Shown here in pieces: positions 22 through 21,807 of a stretch of DNA of 35,759 bases; positions within the stretch are counted from its first letter, which is position 1; each line of letters begins with the position of its first letter. The translations under genes were made by a program, and so were the position numbers. Source of the stretch: Gammaproteobacteria bacterium (GTDB taxonomy: Bacteria > Pseudomonadota > Gammaproteobacteria > SZUA-229); NCBI GenBank assembly GCA_029881425.1, contig JAOUMO010000002.1, forward strand, positions 1 through 35,759, given 5' to 3'. Below the pieces are notes generated by a model. The model was not told the DNA's origin. It was given only the letters and a program-made list of their open reading frames with translations, and made no database searches.

Positions 22-2778
22 CTAGTCAATTTTTACCGCATTATTACGCGCGTCATCGATACTCGCCCATTTAGTCTGGGCACGACGACCGGCATGGTTA
101 ACACGCACCTGCTCATATTCATTCCGCAGTTCGCTTACAAAATTTTCTTTATATTCTTTGGAAATTAAATTCTGCGCCACACCAACGGCACGGGAGGCAT
201 CTTTTACCCAGACACAGGGACCGGCGTAATTGGGTTCAATCTTAACAGCCGTATGCGCCTTTGATGTGGTGGCACCACCCAGCATTATAGGTGTATCAAA
301 CTCGAGTCTTTGCATTTCTTTGGCGATATGCACCATCTCATCCAGTGATGGTGTAATCAGCCCACTCAAACCAATAATATCGACATTCTCTTCTTTTGCC
401 TTTTCCAGTATTTTATTGGCGGGCACCATAACGCCCATATCGATAACTTCAAAGTTATTACATTGCAGCACGACACCAACAATATTTTTACCGATATCAT
501 GCACATCACCCTTGACCGTGGCCATGAGGATTTTACCGTTACTGGAGCTACCCTCGGTCTTTTCTGCTTCAATGAATGGCAGCAAATGCGCCACTGCTTT
601 TTTCATCACGCGCGCTGACTTAACCACCTGCGGCAGGAACATCTTGCCATCGCCGAACAGGTCGCCGACCACGTTCATGCCATCCATCAATGGGCCTTCG
701 ATAACTTCGATCGGGCTCGCATACTGCAACCGTGCCTCTTCGGTATCCTCGATTACAAACGTATCGATACCTTTAACCATGGCATGTGCTATACGTTTCG
801 TCACGGGCAACTCGCGCCACTCCATGGTCTCTTCTTTTTTAGCGCTGCCATCACCTTTATACTTTTCGGCGATATCCAGCAGGCGTTCGGTAGAATCATC
901 GCGTCGATTTAACACCACATCTTCTACCGCATTACGTAGTTCTTCCGGCAGGTCATCGTAGATAGCCAGCTGGCCCGCGTTGACTATACCCATGTCCATA
1001 CCGGCCTTTATGGCATGATATAAAAACACCGCATGGATGGCTTCACGCACCGGGTTATTACCGCGGAAGGAGAAAGACACATTACTTACGCCACCACTGA
1101 CCATGGCATAGGGCAGGGTCTTTTTAATTACACGCGTCGCTTCGATAAAGTCGTTACCGTAATTATTGTGTTCGTCTATACCGGTGGCAACCGCAAAGAT
1201 ATTCGGGTCAAAAATAATATCTTCCGGTGGGAAGTTCACCTGCTCGGTGAGGATCTTATAGGCGCGTGTACAGATTTCGATTTTACGCGCCTGGGTATCG
1301 GCCTGGCCGGTTTCATCGAAGGCCATGACAATAATAGCGGCACCATAACGGCGACAGAGTTTGGCCTGGTGAATAAAGTTCTCTTCGCCTTCCTTGATCG
1401 AAATCGAGTTCACCACGCCCTTGCCCTGGATACACTTCAGGCCGGCCTCGATGATGTGCCACTTACTGGAATCAATCATCACCGGTACGCGGGCAATATC
1501 CGGTTCACTGGCGATAAGATTGAGGAAGGTGGTCATCGCCTTTTCGCCATCGAGCATGCCTTCGTCCATATTGACATCGATAACCTGTGCACCGTTCTCT
1601 ACCTGCTCGCGGGCAACACTCAGGGCTTCATCATATTGCTCTTCGAGAATCAGGCGTTTGAATTTTGCAGAACCGGTAACATTGGTACGCTCACCAACAT
1701 TGACGAATAAAGATGCATCATTAATGTTGCAGGGCTCTAAACCGCTTAAACGACACTCGGTGGCGACTTCGGGAATCTTGCGTGGTGGATACTGCTTAAC
1801 AATGTCACTGATAGCCTTGATATGCGCCGGGCCCGTACCGCAACAACCGCCGACAATATTCAGGAAGCCATTCTTTGCCCAGTCACCAATTTCTTCTGCC
1901 AGCATTTCCGGGGTTTCATCGAAACCACCAAAGGCATTGGGCAGGCCGGCATTGGGGTGCACATTGATATAGCAGTCAGCAATACCGGACATTTCTTCGA
2001 CGTGGGGTCGCAGCTCTTTCGCACCCAGTGCACAGTTAAAACCAAAACTGATCGGTTTGATGTGGCGTAATGAGTTCCAGAAGGCCTCGGGGGTCTGGCC
2101 GGTCAGTATGCGACCACTGGCATCGGTAATGGTGCCGGATATCATCACCGGCAGGATATTACCTGTCTCTTCGAAGTATTCATCAATGGCAAACAATGCC
2201 GCCTTTGCATTTAGCGTATCGAAAACAGTTTCCACCAGGATGATATCCATACCACCCTCGATCAACCCCCTCAGGGAATTGGCATAGGCGAGACGCAACT
2301 GGTCGAAGCTCACATCACGGGCACCGGGATTATTCACATCCTTGGACATCGAGGCGGTTACCGGCATCGGCCCCAGCACACCGGCGACAAACCGGGGTTT
2401 TTCAGCCGAGGCCATGGCATCACAGGCCTCACGTGCGACACGGGCGGCAGCGACATTCAACTCATACACCAGGTCTTCGGCCTCCATGCCATAATCGGCC
2501 ATGCCGTAGTGATTGGCATTAAAGGAATTGGTTTCGATGATATCGGCACCAGCCTGCAGGTAGGCGGTATGAATATCCCTGATAATCTGCGGCTGGGTCA
2601 GTACCAGCAGGTCATTATTGCCCTTCAGGTCGCTGGGCCAGTCTTTAAAGCGCTCGCCTCGATAGTCTTCTTCATCCAGCCCGTAGGTCTGGATCATGGT
2701 ACCCATGGCACCATCCAGGATCAGGATGCGCTGTTCGAGGGCGGCTTTAAAATCGGCGATGCGTTGTTCTGTACTCAT
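22..2778 (-). CDS. metH: Cobalamin-dependent methionine synthase MetH (homocysteine-binding, pterin-binding, cap and B12-binding modules). The ORF is closed by an in-frame TAG just before the AdoMet reactivation module.
   Basis: 918-aa ORF collinear with E. coli MetH from residue 1 ([43 protein letters not shown]12-binding motif). The same frame continues after the TAG as DNYTPPV to the window edge. Confidence 0.9.
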
Positions 2779-2880: not shown

Positions 2881-3594
2881 ATGAATGCCGATCAACTATC
2901 ACTCTATATAACCGCGGAACACAACTGCGGTTATTACGATGACCGAAATTCTGCCAACCTGGTTCCGGACCCACAGGTGAGCATGAATAATGGCCTCTAC
3001 AGCCTGCTGGTGAGTCATGGCTTTCGCCGTAGCGGTGATTTTGTCTACCGTCCCCACTGCAAGACCTGTAGCGCCTGTATGCCCTGCCGCATTGATATTG
3101 CCCAATTCAGGGCAAACCGTAACCAGCGCCGCTGCCTGAAAAATAATGCCGATTTAACAATGCATATCAAAGATGCCCGCTTTAGCGATGAATACCTGGC
3201 GCTGTACCAGCGCTATCTCAATCGCCGTCACAGTGATAGCAGCATGGCCAATCCACAGGCCGATGACTTTACCAAATTCTTACTCAATGACTGGGGGAAG
3301 ACCCTGTTTATTGAATCCAGGCTGGAGGGCAAGCTAGCCTGTATCGCGGTGGTGGACTACCTGAATAATGGCCTGTCTGCTGTATACAGTTTTTTTGATC
3401 CTGATCTGGGGCACCGCAGCCTGGGGACCTTCGCCATTTTACAGCAGGTCTGGCTGGCCCGGCTTTATCGCCTGCCCCATGTTTACCTCGGTTACTGGAT
3501 ACAACAGCACCCAAAAATGGATTACAAAAAACACTTCCAGCCCCTGGAATACTTACAGCACGATCACTGGCAAACATTCAATAATGCATCTTGA
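2881..3594 (+). CDS. bpt: Aspartate/glutamate leucyltransferase (bacterial ATE-family aminoacyl-tRNA protein transferase, Bpt)
   Basis: 237 aa with GFRRSG..YRPHC..C..C motif and a C-terminal YLGYWI block typical of Bpt/ATE. Confidence 0.85.
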   Translation: MNADQLSLYITAEHNCGYYDDRNSANLVPDPQVSMNNGLYSLLVSHGFRRSGDFVYRPHCKTCSACMPCRIDIAQFRANRNQRRCLKNNADLTMHIKDARFSDEYLALYQRYLNRRHSDSSMANPQADDFTKFLLNDWGKTLFIESRLEGKLACIAVVDYLNNGLSAVYSFFDPDLGHRSLGTFAILQQVWLARLYRLPHVYLGYWIQQHPKMDYKKHFQPLEYLQHDHWQTFNNAS

Positions 3595-3600
3595 AAAATC

Positions 3601-3614
3601 TTGATTTACATCAA
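3601..3614. promoter_or_regulatory. Perfect FNR/CRP-family box TTGAT-TTAC-ATCAA
   Basis: Exact match to the E. coli FNR consensus TTGAT-N4-ATCAA. A TACACT -10-like hexamer lies at 3641-3646. fnr itself is encoded about 630 bp downstream. Confidence 0.6.
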
Positions 3615-4241: not shown

Positions 4242-5027
4242 ATGAAAGATAATGTCATGACTTCACTGCAGCCAATAAAATTATCAACACTTAAAACCGC
4301 GTGCAAAAGCTGTAGCTTACATGACCTGTGCCTGCCGCTGGGGCTGGACCTGAGCGATATCGACCGGCTGAATGAGATCATCAAACGCCGCAAACCCCTG
4401 CAAAAGGGTGAATACCTGTTCCAGAATGGCAATACCTTTACATCTATATATGCCGTTCGCAGTGGCTCTATCAAAACCTACACTGAAAGTGAGCAGGGTG
4501 ATGAACAAATAACCGGTCTCTATTTACCCGGTGAAATACTGGGCCTGGACGCGATACACAATAATCAACACCCCTGTTCAGCCATTGCCCTCGAAACCAC
4601 CAGCCTGTGTGAGATCCCCTTCAATATCCTGGAGGAATTGAGCGAGGCCGTGCCAGGCCTGTATCACCAGCTATTTCGTATCATGAGCAAGGAAATTGCC
4701 TCAGATGAGGCTCTGCTGATGCTCATGGCACAGAAAAATGCTGAAGAGCGACTCGCCGCCTTCCTGATCAACATGTCAACACGACTTAAACAACGGAATT
4801 TCTCAGAGACTGAATTTCACCTCAGCATGTCGCGCAAGGACATAGGTAATTATCTGGGATTAACCATTGAAACTATCAGCCGTACATTTAGCCGTTTTCA
4901 GAATGATGGCCTGCTAACAACGCAACGTAAATACGTCAATATTTTGAAACTCAATGAGCTAAAGGCTATTGCCGGCATAGGCCGCCATGCCGCTGAAAAC
5001 AGTGCTGATGATTCAGTCGCCGGCTAA
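4242..5027 (+). CDS. fnr: FNR/ANR-type oxygen-sensing CRP-family transcription regulator
   Basis: 261 aa with an N-terminal Cys cluster (CKSCSLHDLC) plus the Cys in LCEIPF. Contains EQGDEQITG, and the C-terminal HTH RKDIGNYLGLTIETISR matches E. coli FNR. SD ggaaggga lies upstream. Confidence 0.9.
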   Translation: MKDNVMTSLQPIKLSTLKTACKSCSLHDLCLPLGLDLSDIDRLNEIIKRRKPLQKGEYLFQNGNTFTSIYAVRSGSIKTYTESEQGDEQITGLYLPGEILGLDAIHNNQHPCSAIALETTSLCEIPFNILEELSEAVPGLYHQLFRIMSKEIASDEALLMLMAQKNAEERLAAFLINMSTRLKQRNFSETEFHLSMSRKDIGNYLGLTIETISRTFSRFQNDGLLTTQRKYVNILKLNELKAIAGIGRHAAENSADDSVAG

Positions 5028-5104: not shown

Positions 5105-5635
5105 ATGGATAATACAAAAAATATAATCCACTCACTGGGTAAGATCCCCGTCCTCTACGGCCTTGATGCCGACGAACTCAAAGTTGTTCTCTCCATCTGC
5201 AAACCCGAAACCTATAACAAGGATATGACCCTGTTTCACCAGGGATCACCCAGCCATGACATGTACATATTACTGTCAGGGCAGATTGAGATAGTTACCG
5301 AACAACAGGGCTGTATCTGCACCCTGGGTAGCTGTGATCTTTTTGGTGAAATCGGACTGATTACCCAGCAGACCCGCTCTGCCAGTGCCGTCACCCTGAC
5401 CGAGTGCAAATTATTAAAAATAAACCACGTACAGTTCAACCTGCTCACCGGGACACACCCTCGTATCAGTGCGATTCTAATGAAAAATATCAGTACCAAC
5501 CTGGCATCCCATGTATTGCGCATGAACAATGCCCTGGCACTGGAGCACATCCCCCAGGAAAAGCATGACACCCTGTCGGAGCATGAATCACTGATCCTGT
5601 TCAGCCAGTCCAGTGATGATGAATCGAGCCATTAA
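5105..5635 (+). CDS. Stand-alone cyclic-nucleotide-binding (CAP effector) domain protein with no DNA-binding domain
   Basis: 176 aa with the LFGEIGL...RSASAV phosphate-binding-cassette motif. The C-terminus is an acidic, low-complexity tail. Confidence 0.75.
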   Translation: MDNTKNIIHSLGKIPVLYGLDADELKVVLSICKPETYNKDMTLFHQGSPSHDMYILLSGQIEIVTEQQGCICTLGSCDLFGEIGLITQQTRSASAVTLTECKLLKINHVQFNLLTGTHPRISAILMKNISTNLASHVLRMNNALALEHIPQEKHDTLSEHESLILFSQSSDDESSH

Positions 5636-5806
5636 TACCTATTTTTTCCCCACTTAGACACCTTTCTTTTACAGTTTTTAAACTTGCGACTACAAGTGTT
5701 TGATTCGTTTGTACGGTAAAAAAAATTGTCTATTTTTTTCATTTTCATATTTCATGAGGCCTGTTTTATAGGGTAATATGACTCGTCCATGCAGACGGAC
5801 ATCGCA

Positions 5807-6793
5807 ATGCAAATTGGCCCTTATCATTTAACATCACCTGTTTTCCTCGCGCCCATGGCAGGCGTTACGGATCGCCCCTTCCGGCAGCTTTGCCGCCAGC
5901 TGGGCGCAGGGCTAGCAGTATCTGAAATGGTCAGCGCCGACCCGACACTGAGAAACAGCCGCAAAACCCGGTTACGCCTTGACCATGAGGGTGAGCAGGC
6001 CCCTGTCAGTGTACAGATCGCGGGGACCGAACCCCTTATAATGGCCGATGCCGCACGCTTTAACGTGGATCACGGCGCCCAGGTTATTGATATCAACATG
6101 GGCTGCCCGGCGAAAAAAGTCTGCAATGTTCTGGCGGGGTCCGCACTGCTTAAAGATGTAGACAAAGTGGCCGCTATAGTTGAGTCCGTGGTCAATGCGG
6201 TAGAGGTGCCCGTCACCTTAAAAATCCGCACTGGCTGGGATAGCAACAATCGCAATGCGGTACAGGTTGCTCGTATAGCCGAGGAGGCCGGTATACAGGC
6301 GCTGACTATCCATGGTCGTACACGGGCATGCGCCTACCGGGGTGAGGCGGAATACGAAACCATTGCCGAGGTAAAATCACGCATCAATATTCCGGTGATA
6401 GCCAACGGTGATATTACCTCAGCGGATAAGGCAAAAAGGGTGCTGGATCAAACCGGTGCCGATGCCATCATGATTGGCCGTGCGGCCCAGGGACAACCCT
6501 GGATTTTCCGTGAGATCAATCATTTTTTGCAGACAGGCGAATACCTGCCTGCTGCCACTATCGATGAAATCGGCCAGTGGCTGGAAGGACACCTGTACAA
6601 CCTCTATGCATTTTACGGGGATTACATGGGTGTACGTATTGCCCGCAAGCACATCAGCTGGTATTGCAAGACCCAGCCCGGTGCCGAGGCATTCCGTAAA
6701 CACATCAACCAGGTGGAGACGCCTGAACAACAAATAAATGATGTGATGAACTTTTTAAAACAAATAATTAGAAATGAGTCATTCGCTGCATGA
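5807..6793 (+). CDS. dusB: tRNA-dihydrouridine synthase B
   Basis: MQIGPY..LAPMAGVTDRPFR..SEMV aligns with the E. coli DusB N-terminus. An alternative in-frame ATG lies at 5789. Shows the conserved dusB-fis arrangement. Confidence 0.9.
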   Translation: MQIGPYHLTSPVFLAPMAGVTDRPFRQLCRQLGAGLAVSEMVSADPTLRNSRKTRLRLDHEGEQAPVSVQIAGTEPLIMADAARFNVDHGAQVIDINMGCPAKKVCNVLAGSALLKDVDKVAAIVESVVNAVEVPVTLKIRTGWDSNNRNAVQVARIAEEAGIQALTIHGRTRACAYRGEAEYETIAEVKSRINIPVIANGDITSADKAKRVLDQTGADAIMIGRAAQGQPWIFREINHFLQTGEYLPAATIDEIGQWLEGHLYNLYAFYGDYMGVRIARKHISWYCKTQPGAEAFRKHINQVETPEQQINDVMNFLKQIIRNESFAA

Positions 6794-7077
6794 ATACAAT
6801 AAAAAATAATGTTATTCCCATGTCCATTACCAAGAATATTCCCGAATCAAATAGCCTGAGTGAAACGGTTAGACGTTCCCTGGCGCAATTCCTGGACGAG
6901 ATGGAAGGTGATCAGCCCGAGAACCTGTACGACATGGTATTACAGCAGATAGAAGAACCAATGCTGGAACTGGTGATGCAATACGTCGATGGCAACCAGT
7001 CCCGTGCCGCCGACTGCCTGGGGCTCAATCGCGGCACCCTGCGCAAGAAGCTAAAAGCCTATAACCTGCTCAAATAA
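6790..7077 (+). CDS. fis: DNA-binding protein Fis
   Basis: 95 aa with a C-terminal ..VMQY..GNQSRAA..LG(I/L)NRGTLRKKLK motif. The start overlaps the dusB stop (ATGA). Confidence 0.9.
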   Translation: MNTIKNNVIPMSITKNIPESNSLSETVRRSLAQFLDEMEGDQPENLYDMVLQQIEEPMLELVMQYVDGNQSRAADCLGLNRGTLRKKLKAYNLLK

Positions 7078-7090
7078 ATCCATCAGTAAC

Positions 7091-7131
7091 GGCCAAAAAT
7101 TGGCCGATTCCCCCCTGCGCGAGAATGATTT
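7091..7131. repeat. Hairpin ggccaa-aaa-ttggcc followed by a degenerate REP-like palindrome (gattcccccctgcgcgagaatgat)
   Basis: Lies directly after the fis stop. The second part resembles the better-formed REP at 25126-25150. Confidence 0.35.
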
Positions 7132-7176
7132 ACGTTATAATCCGCAACCTAATTTAGAGTCATCCGGAAACCGATC

Positions 7177-8748
7177 ATGAGTAATAACAATCCAAGTCCC
7201 GTGAAACGGGCATTGATCAGTGTGTCTGATAAAACAGGCGTTATTGAACTGGGCAGGGCACTGGCTGAGGCTGGTGTAGAAATTCTTTCCACCGGCGGCA
7301 CAGCCAAAACACTGACCGAAAACAATATCCCGGTAAAAGAGGTTTCCGAGCACACCGGTTTCCCGGAAATGATGGATGGTCGTGTAAAAACCCTGCACCC
7401 CAAAATTCACGGCGGCATCCTGGGTCGTCGCGGTATCGATGATGAAGTCATGAAGATCAATGGTATAGACCCGATCGACCTGGTCGTGGTCAACCTCTAC
7501 CCGTTTGAGGCCACAGTGGCCAAAGACGACTGTTCACTGGACGATGCCATAGAGAATATCGACATCGGTGGCCCGACCATGGTACGTGCTACCGCGAAGA
7601 ACCATGCCTATGTCACGATCGTGGTGAATCCTTCAGACTATGATCGTGTGATCGCAGAAATCAACACCGGCGGCATCACGGCGGCAACCCGTTTTGACCT
7701 GGCGGTAAAAGCCTTTGAGCACACCTCTAACTATGACGGTCATATTGCCAACTACCTGGGACGTATCCAGGATGATGGCACAAAATCTGACTTCCCACGC
7801 ACCTTCAATCTACAGTTCGATAAGGTGCAGGAAATGCGTTATGGCGAAAACCCTCACCAGAAGGCCGCATTTTACAAGGAAGCCCATCCGGCTGATGTAT
7901 CTGTTGCTTCGGCAGTACAGGTCCAGGGCAAGGAACTATCCTACAACAATGTGGCCGATACCGACGCCGCACTCGAGTGCGTAAAATCCTTTGATGAGCC
8001 TGCCTGCGTGATCGTCAAACATGCCAACCCCTGTGGTGTGGCGATTGCTGATAATTCAATGGCCGCCTATGAGCTGGCCTACAAAACAGATCCGACATCG
8101 GCCTTTGGTGGCATTATCGCCTTCAACCGCACCCTGGAAGAAGACGTCGCCGCTGAAATCATCAAGCGCCAGTTTGTCGAAGTCATTATTGCACCGGCAA
8201 TTAGCGACGCCGCAAAAACTGCTTTAAAAGATAAACCCAATGTCCGCGTGCTTGAATGCGGTGAGTGGCAGTCAGCCACACCGGGACTGGATTTCAAACG
8301 CATCAATGGCGGCCTGCTGGTACAGGATCGTGACCTGGGCATGGTTGGCCAGGACGACCTTTCCGTGGTGACTGAACGCAAGCCCACCGACGATGAATTA
8401 AAAGACCTGATGTTCGCCTGGAAAGTGGCCAAGTTCGTGAAGTCCAATGCCATTGTCTATGTCAAAAACCAGATGACTATCGGTGTCGGTGCCGGCCAGA
8501 TGAGCCGTGTCTATTCAGCGAAGGTAGCCGGTATAAAAGCTGCCGACGAAAAACTGGAGGTTAAGGGTTCGGTCATGGCATCAGATGCCTTCTTCCCTTT
8601 CCGTGACGGCATCGATGCCGCCCATGAAGCGGGTATTACAGCGGTGATCCAGCCCGGTGGCTCGATGCGCGATGACGAAGTTATTGCTGCCGCCAATGAA
8701 CACGGCATGGCCATGGTGTTTACCGGTATGCGTCATTTCAGACATTAA
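7177..8748 (+). CDS. purH: Bifunctional AICAR transformylase / IMP cyclohydrolase
   Basis: 523 aa with the N-terminal [12 protein letters not shown]-like domain. Full-length collinearity with PurH, ending ..TGMRHFRH. Confidence 0.95.
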
Positions 8749-10126: not shown

Positions 10127-11041
10127 ATGGATGACAATAACTACCAGGTTATCATCACCAACAGTATCGGCACTGACCAGGATACAGAGACAGTCATCGC
10201 CAAGCTTGCAGCGCTGTTCAAAATTGATACTGCAAAAGCAGCCAGAATCATGCAGCAAAGTCGCACGGTTATTAAAGATAACCTCGATGAAGCCACTGCA
10301 AAAAAATACTGCCTGGCGATCCAGAAAACCGGTGCCCATTGTGAATTAATCGATAAGTCAGCCGAGCCACTACCTGAACTGTCCATACCCGATCAGCCGC
10401 GCCCTGATATTGAACCCAAACCCTTTATACAAACCGCCCGGAAATCAGCAGACAAACAGCAATCCCTCAGCCTCGAGGCAAGGGATGAGCAAAGCCTGAA
10501 AAATCTGGACCAGTTTACAGCGCAGGGTTTTTGCGCCGAATGCGGCACCATTAAAGAGTCTGCTGACTCGATTTGTATTCACTGTGGTCTTAGAGATGAC
10601 CTGGCCAATCAAACAAAGACAACCATCAAAAAAGCCCTGCTGGCATCGGTAGCTGCAGCGGTATTATTCGTCATATTAGGTTTTGCATTAAAACCGTTTT
10701 ACCTGCAATACACACAAAAGACAAAAATACAGGACGGCCTGCAACTGGCGATTGAAACAAGAAACAGGGTGACGACATTTATCCTCGACACAAACTTCTG
10801 GCCCAACCAGAATATCGATGCCGGGCTGCCAAAATCAATCCAGAATGAGATTATTGAATCGATTAAGGTAAGCGAAAATGCCGTTATCACCGTCATCATC
10901 AGGGCAGAGGCCCTGGGCTCCAGCCAGTCTCAGGACCTCATTTTTACCCCAAGGCTCTTCAAGGATAAAATAACCTGGAACTGCCTTAAGGGCAGCCTAA
11001 GCAATAAATTCAGGCCTGATGCCTGCAAGGTGCCTGAATAA
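10127..11041 (+). CDS. Chimeric membrane protein: L7/L12-CTD-like N-domain, CxxC-x11-CxxC zinc ribbon, one TM helix, and a type IV pilin-like periplasmic domain
   Basis: 304 aa. The C-terminal half (PFYLQYTQKTKIQDGLQLA...FWPNQNIDAGLP...ITWNC...RPDAC) follows the type IVa pilin pattern. There is no G/FTLIE prepilin cleavage motif. Confidence 0.7.
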   Translation: MDDNNYQVIITNSIGTDQDTETVIAKLAALFKIDTAKAARIMQQSRTVIKDNLDEATAKKYCLAIQKTGAHCELIDKSAEPLPELSIPDQPRPDIEPKPFIQTARKSADKQQSLSLEARDEQSLKNLDQFTAQGFCAECGTIKESADSICIHCGLRDDLANQTKTTIKKALLASVAAAVLFVILGFALKPFYLQYTQKTKIQDGLQLAIETRNRVTTFILDTNFWPNQNIDAGLPKSIQNEIIESIKVSENAVITVIIRAEALGSSQSQDLIFTPRLFKDKITWNCLKGSLSNKFRPDACKVPE

Positions 11042-17330: not shown

Positions 17331-17344
17331 CCGATATTTATCAA
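17331..17344. promoter_or_regulatory. FNR-like box CCGAT-ATTT-ATCAA (8/10 to consensus)
   Basis: Lies in the 100-nt gap between the TauE gene and the cytochrome cassette. A TAATTT -10-like hexamer sits about 30 nt downstream. Confidence 0.3.
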
Positions 17345-17427
17345 ACTTGCAAACACCCTTTCTTGTGGGAAGTAATTTTGTATGCTATTTACTTTTATTA
17401 ACAGTCAATAATCATGACCTGCCAAAT

Positions 17428-17943
17428 ATGTATAGCGGAATTATTACCAGAATATCTCTGTCCATTTGCCTGATAACAGCATTCGTATTGCTGATCATGC
17501 TCTCTATTGTATTTGTGAATACTAATGGCAACTATACCGACTTCATCCAGTCACAGGCTATTACCCAAAAGAATTTGCAATTTGCAATAATTATTGCCAG
17601 TCTCGTATTGATATCGGCAACGGCTCTACTTAGCTGGCTTATCAGCTTATACAGCAGCTTCCGTATCGCCGGCCCCCTGTACCGCTTCACCCATAACCTT
17701 AGGCATTTTTCTAATACAAAAAAAATAATACCTATTCGTAGTCATGATCAGCTACAGGTACTATCACAAAAAATCATTCATGCCGCAGAAAAAATTGATA
17801 GCCATAAAGAGTCCCTGTTAAACCATATTGATGCTTGCCAACAATTACTAAATGATCACGATAACCCACAGAAACAACAACAACTTGCTGAACTACTGCT
17901 ACAACTAAAGCAACTTGATACCAAGATCAAACTCAATGAATAA
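17428..17943 (+). CDS. Two-TM membrane protein with a HAMP-like domain and no output domain
   Basis: Two hydrophobic helices, then RIAGPLYRF...IPIRSHDQLQVLSQKI (HAMP AS1/AS2-like), then a coiled-coil tail. The start is uncertain: the track begins at TTG 17347, and the first ATG is at 17428. The stop overlaps the next start (ATGAATAA). Confidence 0.6.
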   Translation: MYSGIITRISLSICLITAFVLLIMLSIVFVNTNGNYTDFIQSQAITQKNLQFAIIIASLVLISATALLSWLISLYSSFRIAGPLYRFTHNLRHFSNTKKIIPIRSHDQLQVLSQKIIHAAEKIDSHKESLLNHIDACQQLLNDHDNPQKQQQLAELLLQLKQLDTKIKLNE

Positions 17944-18715
17944 GTTCATCTATTTCATCCTGGTGAGTTTATTTTTTATTACTGGCATGGAAATCATTAT
18001 TGCCGAAATTAATACCGATAACTTCCACCCCAAAGACACCGACTGCCAGCAGTGCCACCTGGCAAGAGGCGAGATCACAGCAGGAAACGCTACACAATTA
18101 TTATCGACACAGGAAAAACTATGTGCACGATGCCATGAGAGCGCCCTGAAGGTTAGCCATCCTAGCGGATTCAATCCTGGCCGTGACATACCCGGCGATT
18201 TCCCGCTGGACTGGAAAAATGAAATTACCTGTAGCACCTGCCACAATGTCCATACAGGGAAACACTCTTCGATCCGTGGCGGCATAAGCGGCAAAGAACT
18301 GTGCCTGAGTTGTCACGATATGTCCTTTTTCAGGGCGATGGCTGATAGCGGCCTGTCAATCCAGCAAAACGCACACATGGGAAAAACCACAAATACACTT
18401 TCTGCTATTGATAACTACTCGATGGAATGTATGAGCTGTCACGCAAACCAGGGCGACACGGTTGATATTTCAATAAATAGCAGGGGCATAGTAAAACACG
18501 CCAGCGGTGCCGTTAATCACCCTGTAGGCATGATTTACGCCAATGCATATAACAAGGGTGGATACCGTGCAATGTCCGAAATATCTGACAATGTCATCTT
18601 GCCAGATGGCAAGGTAAGCTGCCTGTCATGCCATAAGGCCTACACCAAAAAACACGGTGCGACGCTAAATAAAACAACCAGGACATCCCTGTGTTTTGAA
18701 TGCCATGACATGTAA
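17936..18715 (+). CDS. Periplasmic heptahaem c-type cytochrome
   Basis: Signal peptide MNKFIYFILVSLFFITG. Seven CXXCH motifs (CQQCH, CARCH, CSTCH, CLSCH, CMSCH, CLSCH, CFECH) in about 259 aa, plus two HPxG motifs. Confidence 0.85.
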   Translation: MNKFIYFILVSLFFITGMEIIIAEINTDNFHPKDTDCQQCHLARGEITAGNATQLLSTQEKLCARCHESALKVSHPSGFNPGRDIPGDFPLDWKNEITCSTCHNVHTGKHSSIRGGISGKELCLSCHDMSFFRAMADSGLSIQQNAHMGKTTNTLSAIDNYSMECMSCHANQGDTVDISINSRGIVKHASGAVNHPVGMIYANAYNKGGYRAMSEISDNVILPDGKVSCLSCHKAYTKKHGATLNKTTRTSLCFECHDM

Positions 18716-18735
18716 CTGAAAATGGAAATAAACTA

Positions 18736-19254
18736 ATGACCACAAACAAGAGACACATACACTACATCAATCCAGATATTCAAAATCGGCTGATTATCAG
18801 CTTTGTTATTTTTGAGCTGTTATTAATCAGCATCACGGTATTCATACTTTATACGGATATGAGCCAGATCATCGAAGACAACATGTTCAGGAGCCATATT
18901 AAAGAACCATTGAATATTGAATTCTTTAGTATTCGATTATTACAGGCTGTTGCCATATTACTGGTTATTAACCTTATCGCGGCTTCCTTTATCGTGTGGC
19001 GCTGGCGCAGTTACATAAATAATATCACTCGCCCCCTTGAAACCATTATTGATTCGATCAATCAACTGGATTTTAGCATTGATGCTGAAACTGAAAAAAA
19101 TCATGAGACACTGGTGCTGGCGGAAAGCTGGCTAAATACAGAAAAGGAAAGATTCACCAAAATCAGGCAACTTATAGCCGAGATGGACATTAATAATCCA
19201 TCGCATATGATCGAAAAATTAAATATTTCGCAACAATTTATTAAAGAGAAATAA
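18736..19254 (+). CDS. Two-TM membrane protein with a HAMP-like domain and no output domain (paralogous architecture to 17428-17943)
   Basis: 172 aa with two TM helices, NITRPLETI...EKNHETLVLAESWLN, and a short helical tail. Lies 20 nt after the cytochrome gene. Confidence 0.6.
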   Translation: MTTNKRHIHYINPDIQNRLIISFVIFELLLISITVFILYTDMSQIIEDNMFRSHIKEPLNIEFFSIRLLQAVAILLVINLIAASFIVWRWRSYINNITRPLETIIDSINQLDFSIDAETEKNHETLVLAESWLNTEKERFTKIRQLIAEMDINNPSHMIEKLNISQQFIKEK

Positions 19255-19257
19255 CCA

Positions 19258-19677
19258 CTACTGGCCCTCACCCTCGGTCGACACACCTGGCTCCTGTTTT
19301 AAACCCGACTCATAACGTGTCGGATAAAGTATCTCCGTTAGGCGTGCCACTGCATTAATAAATAACTCGCGGGGGAATTTCTGGCAATGATTCTGTAACC
19401 AGACCTGGACCGTAGGGAAGTCCATGTCACCTAAAATATTATAGGTACTGGGCACAATGACATTGAATGCCGATAAATATCCCATGATCCAGTCATTAAA
19501 TACATCCAGCTCAGCACTACCCTTTTGTGCCGCATCCAGATACACCCCACAGGGCTGAGCGCCTACACCAAAAACCGCATAGGCATTCTCAAAATCACGT
19601 GCCTGTACTGTAGTAACACTCAGGCATACAAACACCAGGTAAATTCTTATTTTCTGCAACATTATCAATTTATCCAT
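19258..19677 (-). CDS. Hypothetical secreted protein with two cysteines
   Basis: SD aggtga lies 8 nt before the ATG (MDKLIM...). Signal peptide ends ..TVQA/RD. Pattern G..PCGVYL...W(I)MGYLSAFN...W...HC. No recognised family. Confidence 0.55.
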   Translation of the reverse strand: MDKLIMLQKIRIYLVFVCLSVTTVQARDFENAYAVFGVGAQPCGVYLDAAQKGSAELDVFNDWIMGYLSAFNVIVPSTYNILGDMDFPTVQVWLQNHCQKFPRELFINAVARLTEILYPTRYESGLKQEPGVSTEGEGQ

Positions 19678-19778
19678 TCGTGCACTCACCTGTTTAATAT
19701 AGTCTCAAATTACAACAAATTTGCATATAACATAAAATAAGACTATTGTCTGATTTTCAGGCTCGGAGGATCGACGTT

Positions 19779-21102: not shown

Positions 21103-21807
21103 ATGTTTGATAAAGTCACCCGCAACGCCAGTATTTATATTTTTTACATACTGGTGTCATCGATACTCACAGCAATCCTCAACATTATCCATTCACAACT
21201 GATCCATGCTGAAATCACGACCATAAACTTTATTATGCCGACCGTGGCGGGCTGCATTTTTGGTGTACTGCTAGCAGAAATAAAACTGCTAAATCGGCAA
21301 CTCAATAGCATTGCAACCACAGATCAACTTACCCAGACCTTTAATCGAATGCAGTTTGATAATTTTCTCGAGGCCGAAATTGACAGGGTGAATCGCTATG
21401 GGCAGCCATTTACTTTAATCTTTATGGATATTGACCACTTCAAAAATGTTAACGATCAATATGGCCACCATACTGGTGATATTGTCCTCTCCAGTATCGC
21501 CCAGTTAATTAAAAGCAATAATAGAACAGCTGATATTTTTGCACGCTATGGTGGCGAGGAATTTGTCATTCTCTCACCGTCATCACAGCTTGAAAATGGC
21601 ACACAGCATGCGGAACGACTACGGAAAATAATTGAACAGCACCACTTTAATAAATTAAACAATATCACCTGTAGCTTTGGGGTTGCTGAATATAATAAAG
21701 ACACTAAAGATAGCGATAGTATTTTAATTCGAGCAGACCGCGCCCTCTACAGGGCAAAAGAAGGCGGTCGCAACAGGGTAGAACAGGAACAGAAACCGGT
21801 TCAATAA
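21103..21807 (+). CDS. Membrane-anchored diguanylate cyclase (GGDEF)
   Basis: Two N-terminal TM helices, then D.DHFK.VND..GH..GD and RYGGEEF, with an RTAD I-site 5 residues upstream. Confidence 0.85.
   Translation: MFDKVTRNASIYIFYILVSSILTAILNIIHSQLIHAEITTINFIMPTVAGCIFGVLLAEIKLLNRQLNSIATTDQLTQTFNRMQFDNFLEAEIDRVNRYGQPFTLIFMDIDHFKNVNDQYGHHTGDIVLSSIAQLIKSNNRTADIFARYGGEEFVILSPSSQLENGTQHAERLRKIIEQHHFNKLNNITCSFGVAEYNKDTKDSDSILIRADRALYRAKEGGRNRVEQEQKPVQ

Follow-up and report, generated by a model that had tools for sequence, protein, structure and literature searches.

A seven-haem cytochrome encoded between two HAMP-like membrane proteins: a possible split periplasmic redox receptor

How bacteria sense periplasmic redox state and mineral or electrode electron flow is poorly understood. 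Three adjacent genes on a gammaproteobacterial contig (assembly GCA_029881425.1, contig JAOUMO010000002.1, positions 1 to 35,759; this stretch of 35,759 nucleotides is hereafter called the window) raised a question of this kind, namely what a secreted cytochrome might do between two membrane proteins that carry a HAMP-like cytoplasmic segment and no output domain. The first gene, A (17428..17943, + strand), encodes an N-in/C-in protein of 171 amino acids with two transmembrane helices (2TM), a HAMP-like cytoplasmic segment and a helical tail. Gene B (17936..18715, + strand) encodes a predicted secreted heptahaem c-type cytochrome of 259 amino acids, whose signal peptide spans residues 1 to ~23, and gene C (18736..19254, + strand) a second N-in/C-in 2TM protein of 172 amino acids that is a distant paralogue of A. 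We propose, with a probability of roughly 40%, that the trio is a split, three-protein periplasmic redox receptor reporting to the cell interior. Its components are of known kinds, a multihaem cytochrome c and a HAMP-like 2TM transmitter, and periplasmic sensing by haem c is known in fused form. What is new is the arrangement, in which a seven-haem subunit acts in trans, the two paralogous transmitters lack an output, and both partners were duplicated in parallel.

The three genes were packed on the same strand exactly as an earlier reading of the sequence alone had described, with the stop codon of A and the start codon of B sharing an 8-nt overlap (ATGAATAA, 17936..17943, + strand, read directly) and a gap of 20 nt (18716–18735) between B and C. 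The identical overlap was present in loci L001, L002, L005, and L008, and it is consistent with translational coupling of A and B. Gene A runs from an ATG at 17428 to a TAA at 17943; the list of open reading frames (ORFs) shows a longer TTG-initiated form, and the N-terminal conservation of the close homologues, all of which start with MYSGI, supported the ATG start. A promoter and terminator scan around the trio gave sites no commoner than in shuffled sequence. The AT-rich patch noticed earlier held for A and C (37–41% GC) when compared with the upstream rhlB and TauE genes (52–57%), but not for B (49%), and the window elsewhere was equally AT-rich; horizontal transfer, as the low GC might suggest, is conjectural.

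To follow the trio in other genomes, the motif SFRIAGPLY was used in a scan with one genome per species, which gave 28 loci. In 26 loci analysed jointly with the window, gene A was found in 26, B in 25, and C in 22, and three loci missing only C stopped at contig edges. In all 22 loci with enough contig the order was A-B-C, with similar gene sizes, so the gene order that had been seen once recurred throughout; the lone exception, L021 (Aestuariirhabdus), carried an A-like gene without B and C. The hosts included the gammaproteobacterium Sedimenticola hydrogenitrophicus SN1189, Chromatiales metagenome-assembled genomes (MAGs), and vent and sediment MAGs, and, among betaproteobacteria, Noviherbaspirillum sp. 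ST 5-3 (complete genome), Paucimonas, Oxalobacteraceae, and Gallionella and Rhodoferax MAGs. The cassette is thus compact and widespread, and S. hydrogenitrophicus and Noviherbaspirillum sp. ST 5-3 are cultured hosts. An exhaustive HMMER search with the A profile, grouped at 50% identity, gave 126 clusters at E≤1e-30, almost all of them 170–200 amino acids long, and 289 clusters when the limit was set at E≤1e-10; the lengths overall were nearly always 145–206 amino acids. Homologues found in database searches showed 52–67% identity with B and down to 27% with A, and were named only 'hypothetical' or 'cytochrome c3 family' in the source databases. No curated Pfam or NCBIfam model covered A or C, B was matched by generic multihaem models only, and no publication describing the cassette was found in a literature search of partial coverage. 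The earlier statement that the trio is not accounted for by a characterised system therefore stood.

Both A and C had two hydrophobic segments, with basic residues at the N-terminus and after the second transmembrane helix (TM2) and a loop that was neutral or acidic. By hydropathy and the positive-inside rule, both proteins therefore had an N-in/C-in topology with periplasmic loops of 23–27 residues. AlphaFold2 models of the monomers, of moderate confidence (predicted local distance difference test scores of 75 for A and 68.5 for C), alike consisted of TM1, the loop, a long TM2 helix, a connector of ~10 residues, a further helix, and a short tail helix. Hydropathy, charges, and models agreed in this way on the two transmembrane helices that the sequence-only reading had assigned to each protein. 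TM2 of A (17581..17652, + strand; ~residues 52–75) ended in an invariant LYSSF, as judged from hydropathy, alignment, and AlphaFold2, and was followed by the HAMP-like region (17653..17799, + strand; residues 76–124), in which an AS1-like helix SFRIAGPLYRFTHNLRHF, a connector SNTKKIIPIRSH, and an AS2-like helix DQLQVLSQKIIHAAEKI were distinguished (AS1 and AS2 being the two amphipathic segments of a HAMP domain). In C the corresponding region (19006..19155, + strand; residues 91–140) consisted of NNITRPLETIIDSINQL, the connector DFSIDAETEKN, and HETLVLAESWLNTEKERF, and hhalign aligned it in register with SFRIAGPLYRF of family A8, a set of single-copy relatives described below. The acidic periplasmic loop of C (18853..18930, + strand; residues 40–65) contained a conserved IIEDNMFRxH motif in which H54 was invariant, and this loop is a candidate docking site for B.

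In homologue alignments, the best-conserved part of A was the cytoplasmic motif. Residues S77, F78, R79, I80, A81, G82, P83, L84, Y85, R86, R104, and D107 were invariant, and the 14-residue block LYSSFRIAGPLYRF was unchanged from Spirochaetes to Proteobacteria and far more conserved than ordinary HAMP sequence. Such conservation points to a specific contact kept on the cytoplasmic side, and is not expected of a mere anchor. In the family alignments the membrane helices of A and C had no conserved His or Cys, and no Met for a cofactor or quinone site either, and the conserved polar pair of C, E27/N79, lay on the cytoplasmic side within the bilayer and hence far from B. From these features A and C cannot carry electrons across the membrane, and they do not look like a quinol site beside B. 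The electron-conduit half of the earlier suggestion, a redox-sensing or electron-conduit module, was accordingly left without support, since the helices lack conserved His or Cys to hold cofactors, whereas redox sensing remained the best of the available options. His126 of A, at first taken as invariant and considered as a phospho-acceptor, was ruled out: it was conserved in less than 90% of the 120-sequence alignment and missing from family A8.

The cytoplasmic segments followed directly after the last transmembrane helix of an N-in protein, as HAMP domains do, on the evidence of hydropathy and charges and of the AlphaFold2 models, in which TM2 and the AS1-like helix were continuous. They also had the HAMP pattern of a Pro-containing helix, a connector (10–13 residues), and a second helix with a/d hydrophobic periodicity over ~50 residues. 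In A, the first helix contained RIAGPLYRF with P83, the connector was predicted at 98–107, and the AS2-like helix ran from D107/L109 and began with R..D; the hydrophobic positions were L84, F87, L91, and F94, then I100, I101, and I103, then L109, L112, I116, A119, and I123. In C, the corresponding elements were NITRPLETI with P100, a predicted connector at 111–120, and an AS2-like helix from H123 beginning with HE. The TM2-HAMP region of the NCBIfam BaeS model aligned to A (E=0.002, 17 bits). Among more distant relatives, a protein from Omnitrophica (L034) scored 21.1–21.7 bits with Pfam HAMP (cut-off 25) in the correct register and also matched HAMP_2, and the spirochaete-type consensus scored 12.4 bits, again in the correct register and below threshold. 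The claim of HAMP domains was upheld in position, in the helix–connector–helix pattern, and in motifs but not in Pfam HAMP matches, and we regard the segment as HAMP-like, strongly diverged and probably of HAMP origin, but not as an established HAMP domain.

The conserved connector also allowed another view, in which it is a cyclic di-GMP (c-di-GMP) binding site and A a c-di-GMP-responsive membrane effector with B as its periplasmic partner. The RxxD pair (R104, D107) did not vary among 26 sequences and was kept in at least 90% of 120, GGDEF genes stood near the trio in 8 of the 26 loci, and the best PDB match of a profile restricted to this segment of A was a 'DNA-binding protein', 4oay, which we take to be the C-terminal domain of BldD, the match covering its RGD...RQDD region, where c-di-GMP binds. 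However, this match was not significant (E=0.4, 13–14 bits), ordinary HAMP domains also typically open AS2 with R..D(E), and the GGDEF enrichment was modest. We consider a c-di-GMP effector very improbable.

No kinase, methyl-accepting chemotaxis protein (MCP), GGDEF, or other output domain was found in A or C with Pfam and NCBIfam. Among the best 150 family matches nearly all proteins were of 145–206 amino acids, and the longer ones that were examined were an A-C fusion or unrelated, probably miscalled N-terminal extensions. Since the homologues of A were short across nearly all clusters, the absence of an output domain is a property of the family and not a truncation, and the output-less character proposed earlier extended over ~130–290 clusters (50% identity). 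An apparent GGDEF-A fusion in L026 was rejected as an ORF-calling artefact, its two parts lying in different reading frames.

Protein B contained exactly 14 Cys residues, all within seven CXXCH motifs (residues 37, 63, 99, 123, 165, 229, and 253), and a single hydrophobic segment, N-terminal, at residues 3–27; the description of B as a signal peptide with seven CXXCH motifs in 259 residues was borne out by this count and by hydropathy. Its Pfam scores exceeded the cut-offs of Paired_CXXCH_1 (64.1 against 20.6), Cytochrome_C7 (38.1 against 24.8), and Cytochrom_c3_2 (35.9 against 25). All seven motifs were invariant across 21 homologues, in which seven extra His residues (H31, H75, H106, H147, H188, H195, and H240) were invariant or nearly so. 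These could be the distal haem ligands, and their number is enough for seven bis-His haems. With its CXXCH motifs and profile match, export signal, and supply of ligands, B is by prediction a multihaem cytochrome c. The halves of B aligned to each other (BLASTP E=1e-7), SHPSG pairing with NHPVG, which confirmed the 4+3 internal duplication, with one HPxG motif per half, that had been read from the sequence. The N-terminal four-haem half (18005..18340, + strand) was a homologue of a spirochaete tetrahaem partner cytochrome by hhalign, and the C-terminal three-haem half (18341..18712, + strand) was the internal duplicate, in which the second haem site has been lost.

A protein of this kind might serve as a relay instead of a sensor. 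In that case A and C would hold B at the inner membrane, B would link periplasmic and outer-membrane cytochromes, such as those of Uet-like clusters, with respiratory complexes or the quinone pool, and the cytoplasmic helices would serve assembly or stability. We judge this somewhat unlikely. B looked like an electron-transfer multihaem cytochrome, its haems all being predicted as bis-His, and its only database relatives were wire-type: the best matches in a PDB sequence search were MtrA (6r2q_A) and 7tfs_A, both at E=7e-7 and via the paired-CXXCH motif. Against a relay, models of the NapC/NirT/NrfH type did not recognise B (NrfH, TIGR03153, 16.7 bits against a cut-off of 134), and a Pfam scan gave no match to PF03264 (Cytochrom_NNT). 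The properties of A and C described above argue in the same direction: the membrane helices lack conserved residues with which haem b, an iron-sulfur cluster, or a quinone could be bound, the polar pair of C faces away from B, and conservation in A is strongest in the cytoplasm.

The relationship between the two membrane proteins was not visible by direct comparison, for BLASTP of A against C gave nothing and hhalign of the two family profiles gave 2%. It became apparent through stand-alone 2TM relatives of ~180 amino acids (L032–L038) from Leptospirales, Spirochaetes, Omnitrophica, Planctomycetota, and unclassified bacteria. These proteins combined a C-like N-terminus RRRxxxINxxFQ... and a C-like E-x-N-L-Y-x-x-H with an A-type SFRIAGPLYRF...R..D. 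The profile of this single-copy family, A8, matched the A family (hhalign 99.6%, E=1.2e-23) and, over its full length, the C family (94.3%, E=1e-7). A and C are therefore, on this sequence evidence, old paralogues that keep complementary parts of the ancestral sequence, C the N-terminal and periplasmic motifs and A the cytoplasmic motif; the paralogy that the sequence-only reading had asserted failed in direct comparison but held transitively through A8. The complementary retention suggests a division of labour, in which C holds the motifs for input and A the invariant motif on the cytoplasmic side.

In five of the seven single-copy loci, the 2TM gene lay directly 3' of a gene for a tetrahaem cytochrome of ~150 amino acids. 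This tetrahaem family was homologous to the N-terminal half of B (hhalign of A9 against A5, 97.9%, E=4.5e-13, B residues 19–110), and the partnership of cytochrome and 2TM protein therefore predates the duplication in Proteobacteria. As deduced from these alignments, the trio is the duplicated form of an ancient cytochrome + 2TM pair, in which the cytochrome was duplicated internally (4 to 4+3) and the 2TM protein into A and C. Parallel duplication of membrane subunit and cytochrome, with complementary retention of motifs, would make it a clear case of a symmetric complex turning pseudo-symmetric. A natural A-C fusion, P0192 (413 amino acids), was encoded two genes upstream of a 7-CXXCH homologue of B (35% identity, E=1e-62), which, by Rosetta-stone reasoning, is evidence for a joint action of A, C, and B. 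At L039:5001-7951 and L040:2709-5659, the 413-aa A-C fusion, with the motif degenerated to THLIAGPLARF, was followed by a gene for an FGE-sulfatase-domain lipoprotein and then by a seven-haem B homologue.

Leptospirales and Spirochaetes (L032, L033, L035, L036, and L038, at ~5200-8500 in each) shared a four-gene cassette, which encoded an astacin-type lipoprotein protease, a ~400-aa protein, the ~150-aa tetrahaem cytochrome, and the single 2TM HAMP-like protein. The protease is one reason to consider that A and C might form a module for cytochrome assembly, quality control, or stress, comparable to envelope-stress 2TM proteins, which would sense or chaperone apo- or holo-B or the cytochrome load and not the redox state. 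The apocytochrome TorC binds the sensor TorS, which offers a precedent. The membrane part of the proteins showed a weak Pfam likeness to the TM region of PspC/LiaF (E=0.06), as well as to further families of small membrane proteins linked with stress, and a DsbA-like gene lies downstream of the trio in the window. However, the Pfam similarities were all far below threshold, no Ccm/Ccs or Dsb linkage was conserved across the loci, the DsbA-like gene of the window having no counterpart in related loci, and the matched duplications of B and the 2TM protein favour a specific stoichiometric complex over a general chaperone. An assembly or stress function is, in our judgement, unlikely.

The proposed redox receptor, in its most economical form, would work as follows. 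B would be exported by Sec and matured to a soluble cytochrome with seven bis-His haems, while A and C, placed in the membrane N-in/C-in, would form a pseudo-symmetric heterodimer that goes back to a homodimer, its four-helix membrane bundle continuing into a HAMP-like bundle in the cytoplasm. The tandem-duplicated B would dock on the periplasmic juxtamembrane helices, above all on the acidic His loop of C, with one half of B per subunit. Its oxidation state would be set by periplasmic electron carriers or by extracellular-electron-transfer traffic, and a redox change in B would alter the contact and displace the TM2 helices. Through the HAMP-like segment, in which A retains the invariant SFRIAGPLYRF...R..D motif, this movement would reach the helical tails, and these would influence a separate partner in the cytoplasm or the membrane by direct protein-protein contact. 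Heterodimerisation of A and C, docking of B on them, redox-dependent signalling, and the identity of the output partner are all inferred. In this scheme A and C resemble a transmembrane transmitter whose sensing domain was replaced by a separate protein.

The receptor is favoured by the tight coupling of the genes, the fusion, the common origin, the complementary retention of motifs, the transducer-like anatomy, the strong conservation of the cytoplasmic motif of A, the lack of TM cofactor residues, and signalling-rich neighbourhoods, and also by NHL and 11-haem Uet-like clusters close to the trio in 10–12 of the 26 loci, which would give it something to sense. Several results weigh against it. 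Pfam HAMP models (PF00672 / PF18947) gave no match at E≤1 with A, with C, with any of the 120 homologues of A, or with the A and C consensus sequences. When PDB sequences were searched with profiles of the whole of A, the whole of C, and the restricted segment of A, no HAMP chain came up, only coiled-coil noise; Tsr TM2-HAMP was matched by C only, and not significantly (E=2.2). Foldseek of both AlphaFold2 models against the PDB gave no match at E≤0.001, only generic helical proteins, and since both models show monomers, with moderate confidence, the parallel four-helix bundle is hypothetical. B has a His for all seven haems, and so no obvious sensing site in the form of an open coordination position. 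The window contained no other multihaem gene, electron-transfer cluster, or Uet-like genes in its 35 kb, the rest being housekeeping; the enrichment of signalling genes across the loci was modest, their architectures varied, and no output partner was conserved. The astacin protease and the ~400-aa protein of the spirochaete cassette, finally, do not suggest redox signalling.

The signalling genes in question were GGDEF proteins (8/26 loci), histidine kinases (8/26), and sigma54 response regulators (6/26), together with PilJ-domain, Reg_prop, and hemerythrin genes. In Sedimenticola, the order was redoxin, PAS histidine kinase, sigma54 regulator, Sel1, two Reg_prop propellers, hemerythrin, A-B-C, HNOBA-GAF-GGDEF, and PAS-GGDEF-EAL, and in one metagenomic contig a kinase, a sigma54 regulator, Sel1, a cytochrome c, Reg_prop, and a PilJ-domain protein preceded the trio. 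The other frequent neighbours were NHL propellers (12/26), multihaem cytochromes including 11-haem proteins (10/26), a ~680-aa protein (6/26), and CcoG/FixG-like proteins (4/26). This second group bears on the relay as well as on the receptor.

A Uet-like cluster adjoined the trio in about half of the related loci (L023, L002, L005, L008, L009, L020, and L024–L030). The Uet cluster of Tenderiales and Gallionella comprises a tetrahaem UetA, a barrel UetC, the NHL proteins UetH and UetI, and an undecahaem UetJ (10.1101/2022.05.06.490989; PMC10734462). The composition of L023-type clusters matched it, with a UetA-like tetrahaem, NHL proteins, a ~680-aa barrel-like protein, and an 11-haem protein. 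At L023:197-7840 the genes formed a co-directional array of tetrahaem, NHL, 682-aa protein, NHL, 11-haem, 9-haem, A, B, and C, in which the tetrahaem protein was a full-length homologue of PDB 7tfs_A (E=1e-25). That the trio forms the co-directional 3' end of a Uet-like operon here, that clusters of NHL, 11-haem, barrel, and tetrahaem genes adjoin it in 10–12 of the 26 loci, and that a CcoG/FixG-like iron-sulfur membrane protein follows it in four Oxalobacteraceae loci all speak for a relay. So does the published Uet model, which has no defined inner-membrane acceptor (10.1101/2022.05.06.490989). With the inner-membrane end of the Uet-type electron-uptake pathway undefined, the trio would fill a gap in such pathways if it were an electron-relay anchor. 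However, the trio also occurred without an adjacent electron-transfer cluster, both in the window and in L001. Membership in the Uet system did not hold either: linkage was seen in only 10–12 of the 26 loci and not in the window, neither a heptahaem cytochrome nor a 2TM protein is named among uetA-J, and 'Heptaheme', 'seven heme', and 'HAMP' are absent from the text of that report (10.1101/2022.05.06.490989). The trio thus resembles the Uet genes in adjoining them in about half of the related loci, and differs in standing outside their list. In the four Oxalobacteraceae loci (L014, L015, L017, and L018), the protein downstream of C was a CcoG/FixG-like membrane ferredoxin (Fer4_18 + FixG_C), and in Noviherbaspirillum (L017:9916-13662) the ferredoxin gene was followed by putative FeoA/FeoB genes, a likeness taken from N-terminal sequences only.

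Like NrfH/CymA/NapC and ImcH/CbcL, B is proposed to be a multihaem c-type cytochrome at the periplasmic face of the inner membrane; unlike NrfH/CymA/NapC, it had no NapC/NirT fold signature, its anchoring would use separate 2TM proteins, and b-type or quinone-site residues were absent. With MtrA/DmsE, B shares paired-CXXCH repeats and predicted bis-His haem packing, whereas the decahaem family profile did not recognise B (TIGR03508, 37.6 bits against a cut-off of 192), the similarity was limited to motif stretches of 30–45 residues, B has seven haems, and no porin partner was adjacent in the window.

Among receptors, a comparable anatomy is that of the Af1503 type from Archaeoglobus fulgidus, reportedly (in work attributed to Hulko et al. 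2006) 2TM proteins in which HAMP is the only cytoplasmic domain. A and C likewise have N-in 2TM topology, a Pro-containing helix after TM2, a connector, a second helix, and no kinase, MCP, or cyclase output. Af1503 is, however, recognised by Pfam HAMP, whereas A, C, and 120 homologues of A were not, and it is a homodimer, whereas the trio has two diverged paralogues with a periplasmic loop of only 23–27 residues and an additional helical tail at the C-terminus, and a cytochrome gene is obligatorily linked to them. Periplasmic sensor domains with c-type haem are fused to chemoreceptors in Desulfovibrio DcrA and in Geobacter GSU0582 and GSU0935. The proposal for the trio shares their logic, in that c-type haem in the periplasm feeds into a HAMP-type transmitter spanning the membrane, but those receptors carry a single haem, within a PAS-like domain covalently joined to the receptor, and possess a complete MCP output, whereas the sensor of the trio would be a separate protein with seven haems. 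Profile and PDB sequence searches detected no similarity of the trio to sensors of this type. Separate partners are known from Campylobacter CetA/CetB, a split sensor/transducer pair, and cytochrome-sensor contact from TorC-TorS. As in CetA/CetB, input and membrane transducer are encoded by separate adjacent genes, and as in TorC-TorS, a multihaem cytochrome is proposed to contact the periplasmic region of the sensor; CetA and TorS, however, carry classical MCP or kinase outputs, and no homology to A, B, or C was found.

If the trio is a sensor, it would represent a new receptor design with a cytochrome as trans-acting input, give a function to 'output-less HAMP' proteins, and open a way to study how extracellular electron transfer is regulated. 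More tentatively, the trio and its single-copy relatives might constitute a new multi-phylum class of receptor, with a detachable cytochrome sensor and an output-less, HAMP-derived 2TM transducer that signals by contact through SFRIAGPLYRF...RxxD, duplicated in Proteobacteria into a pseudo-symmetric A-B-C that monitors Uet-type traffic; we consider this wider version somewhat unlikely.

The regulation of the trio had been linked to FNR by a box just upstream of A. The 8/10 FNR-like box CCGATATTTATCAA (17331..17344, + strand) was present but is probably non-functional. With TTGAT-N4-ATCAA as the site sought, the window held 33 FNR-like sites with at most two mismatches against 23.6 ± 4.7 expected, and no FNR-like site upstream of A was conserved in 19 related loci, so that the box stands at chance level and FNR control of the trio has no sequence support. 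A perfect FNR box, TTGATTTACATCAA, was found at 3601-3614, between an arginyl-transferase gene (2881-3594) and a Crp/Fnr-family gene (4242-5027), and may serve fnr autoregulation. The Crp/Fnr-family gene was followed at 5105-5635 by a second gene, whose product has only a cNMP-binding domain. No sigma54 promoter was found near the trio in the window upstream of A. Candidate boxes of the -24/-12 type (at most two mismatches to TGGCAC-N5-TTGCA) occurred at L009:5741, L021:8848, L027:12166, L029:7710 and 9902, L012:7357, and L019:7312. Such boxes preceded Uet-like operons and, in L029 and Sedimenticola, also the trio or its preceding hemerythrin gene. Sigma54 control as a general feature of the trio was dropped, candidates being present in only a few other loci.

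In the window, the trio was flanked upstream by rhlB-TauE and on the other side by a small secreted ORF, the DsbA-like gene, DUF2390, and a 2TM diguanylate cyclase without a sensor domain. The 143-aa secreted ORF, the DsbA-like gene, DUF2390, and TauE had no counterparts beside the trio in related loci. The diguanylate cyclase (21103..21807, + strand; Pfam GGDEF E=1.6e-47), three genes downstream of the trio, was 47% identical over its GGDEF domain to a PilJ-GGDEF gene that stands divergently beside the trio in L005–L007, and its role as output partner of the trio is speculative. The small secreted ORF (19258-19689, - strand), convergent with C, encodes 143 amino acids with a signal-peptide-like N-terminus and belongs to no Pfam family. 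Elsewhere in the window, a MetH-like ORF at 22-2778 (- strand; 918 amino acids) had Hcy-methyltransferase, pterin-binding, and two B12-binding domains without the C-terminal reactivation domain, and may be a split or shortened methionine synthase. At 10127-11041 (+ strand) lay a gene for an unusually long type IV pilin-family protein (304 amino acids), with the Pilin domain only at its C-terminal end.

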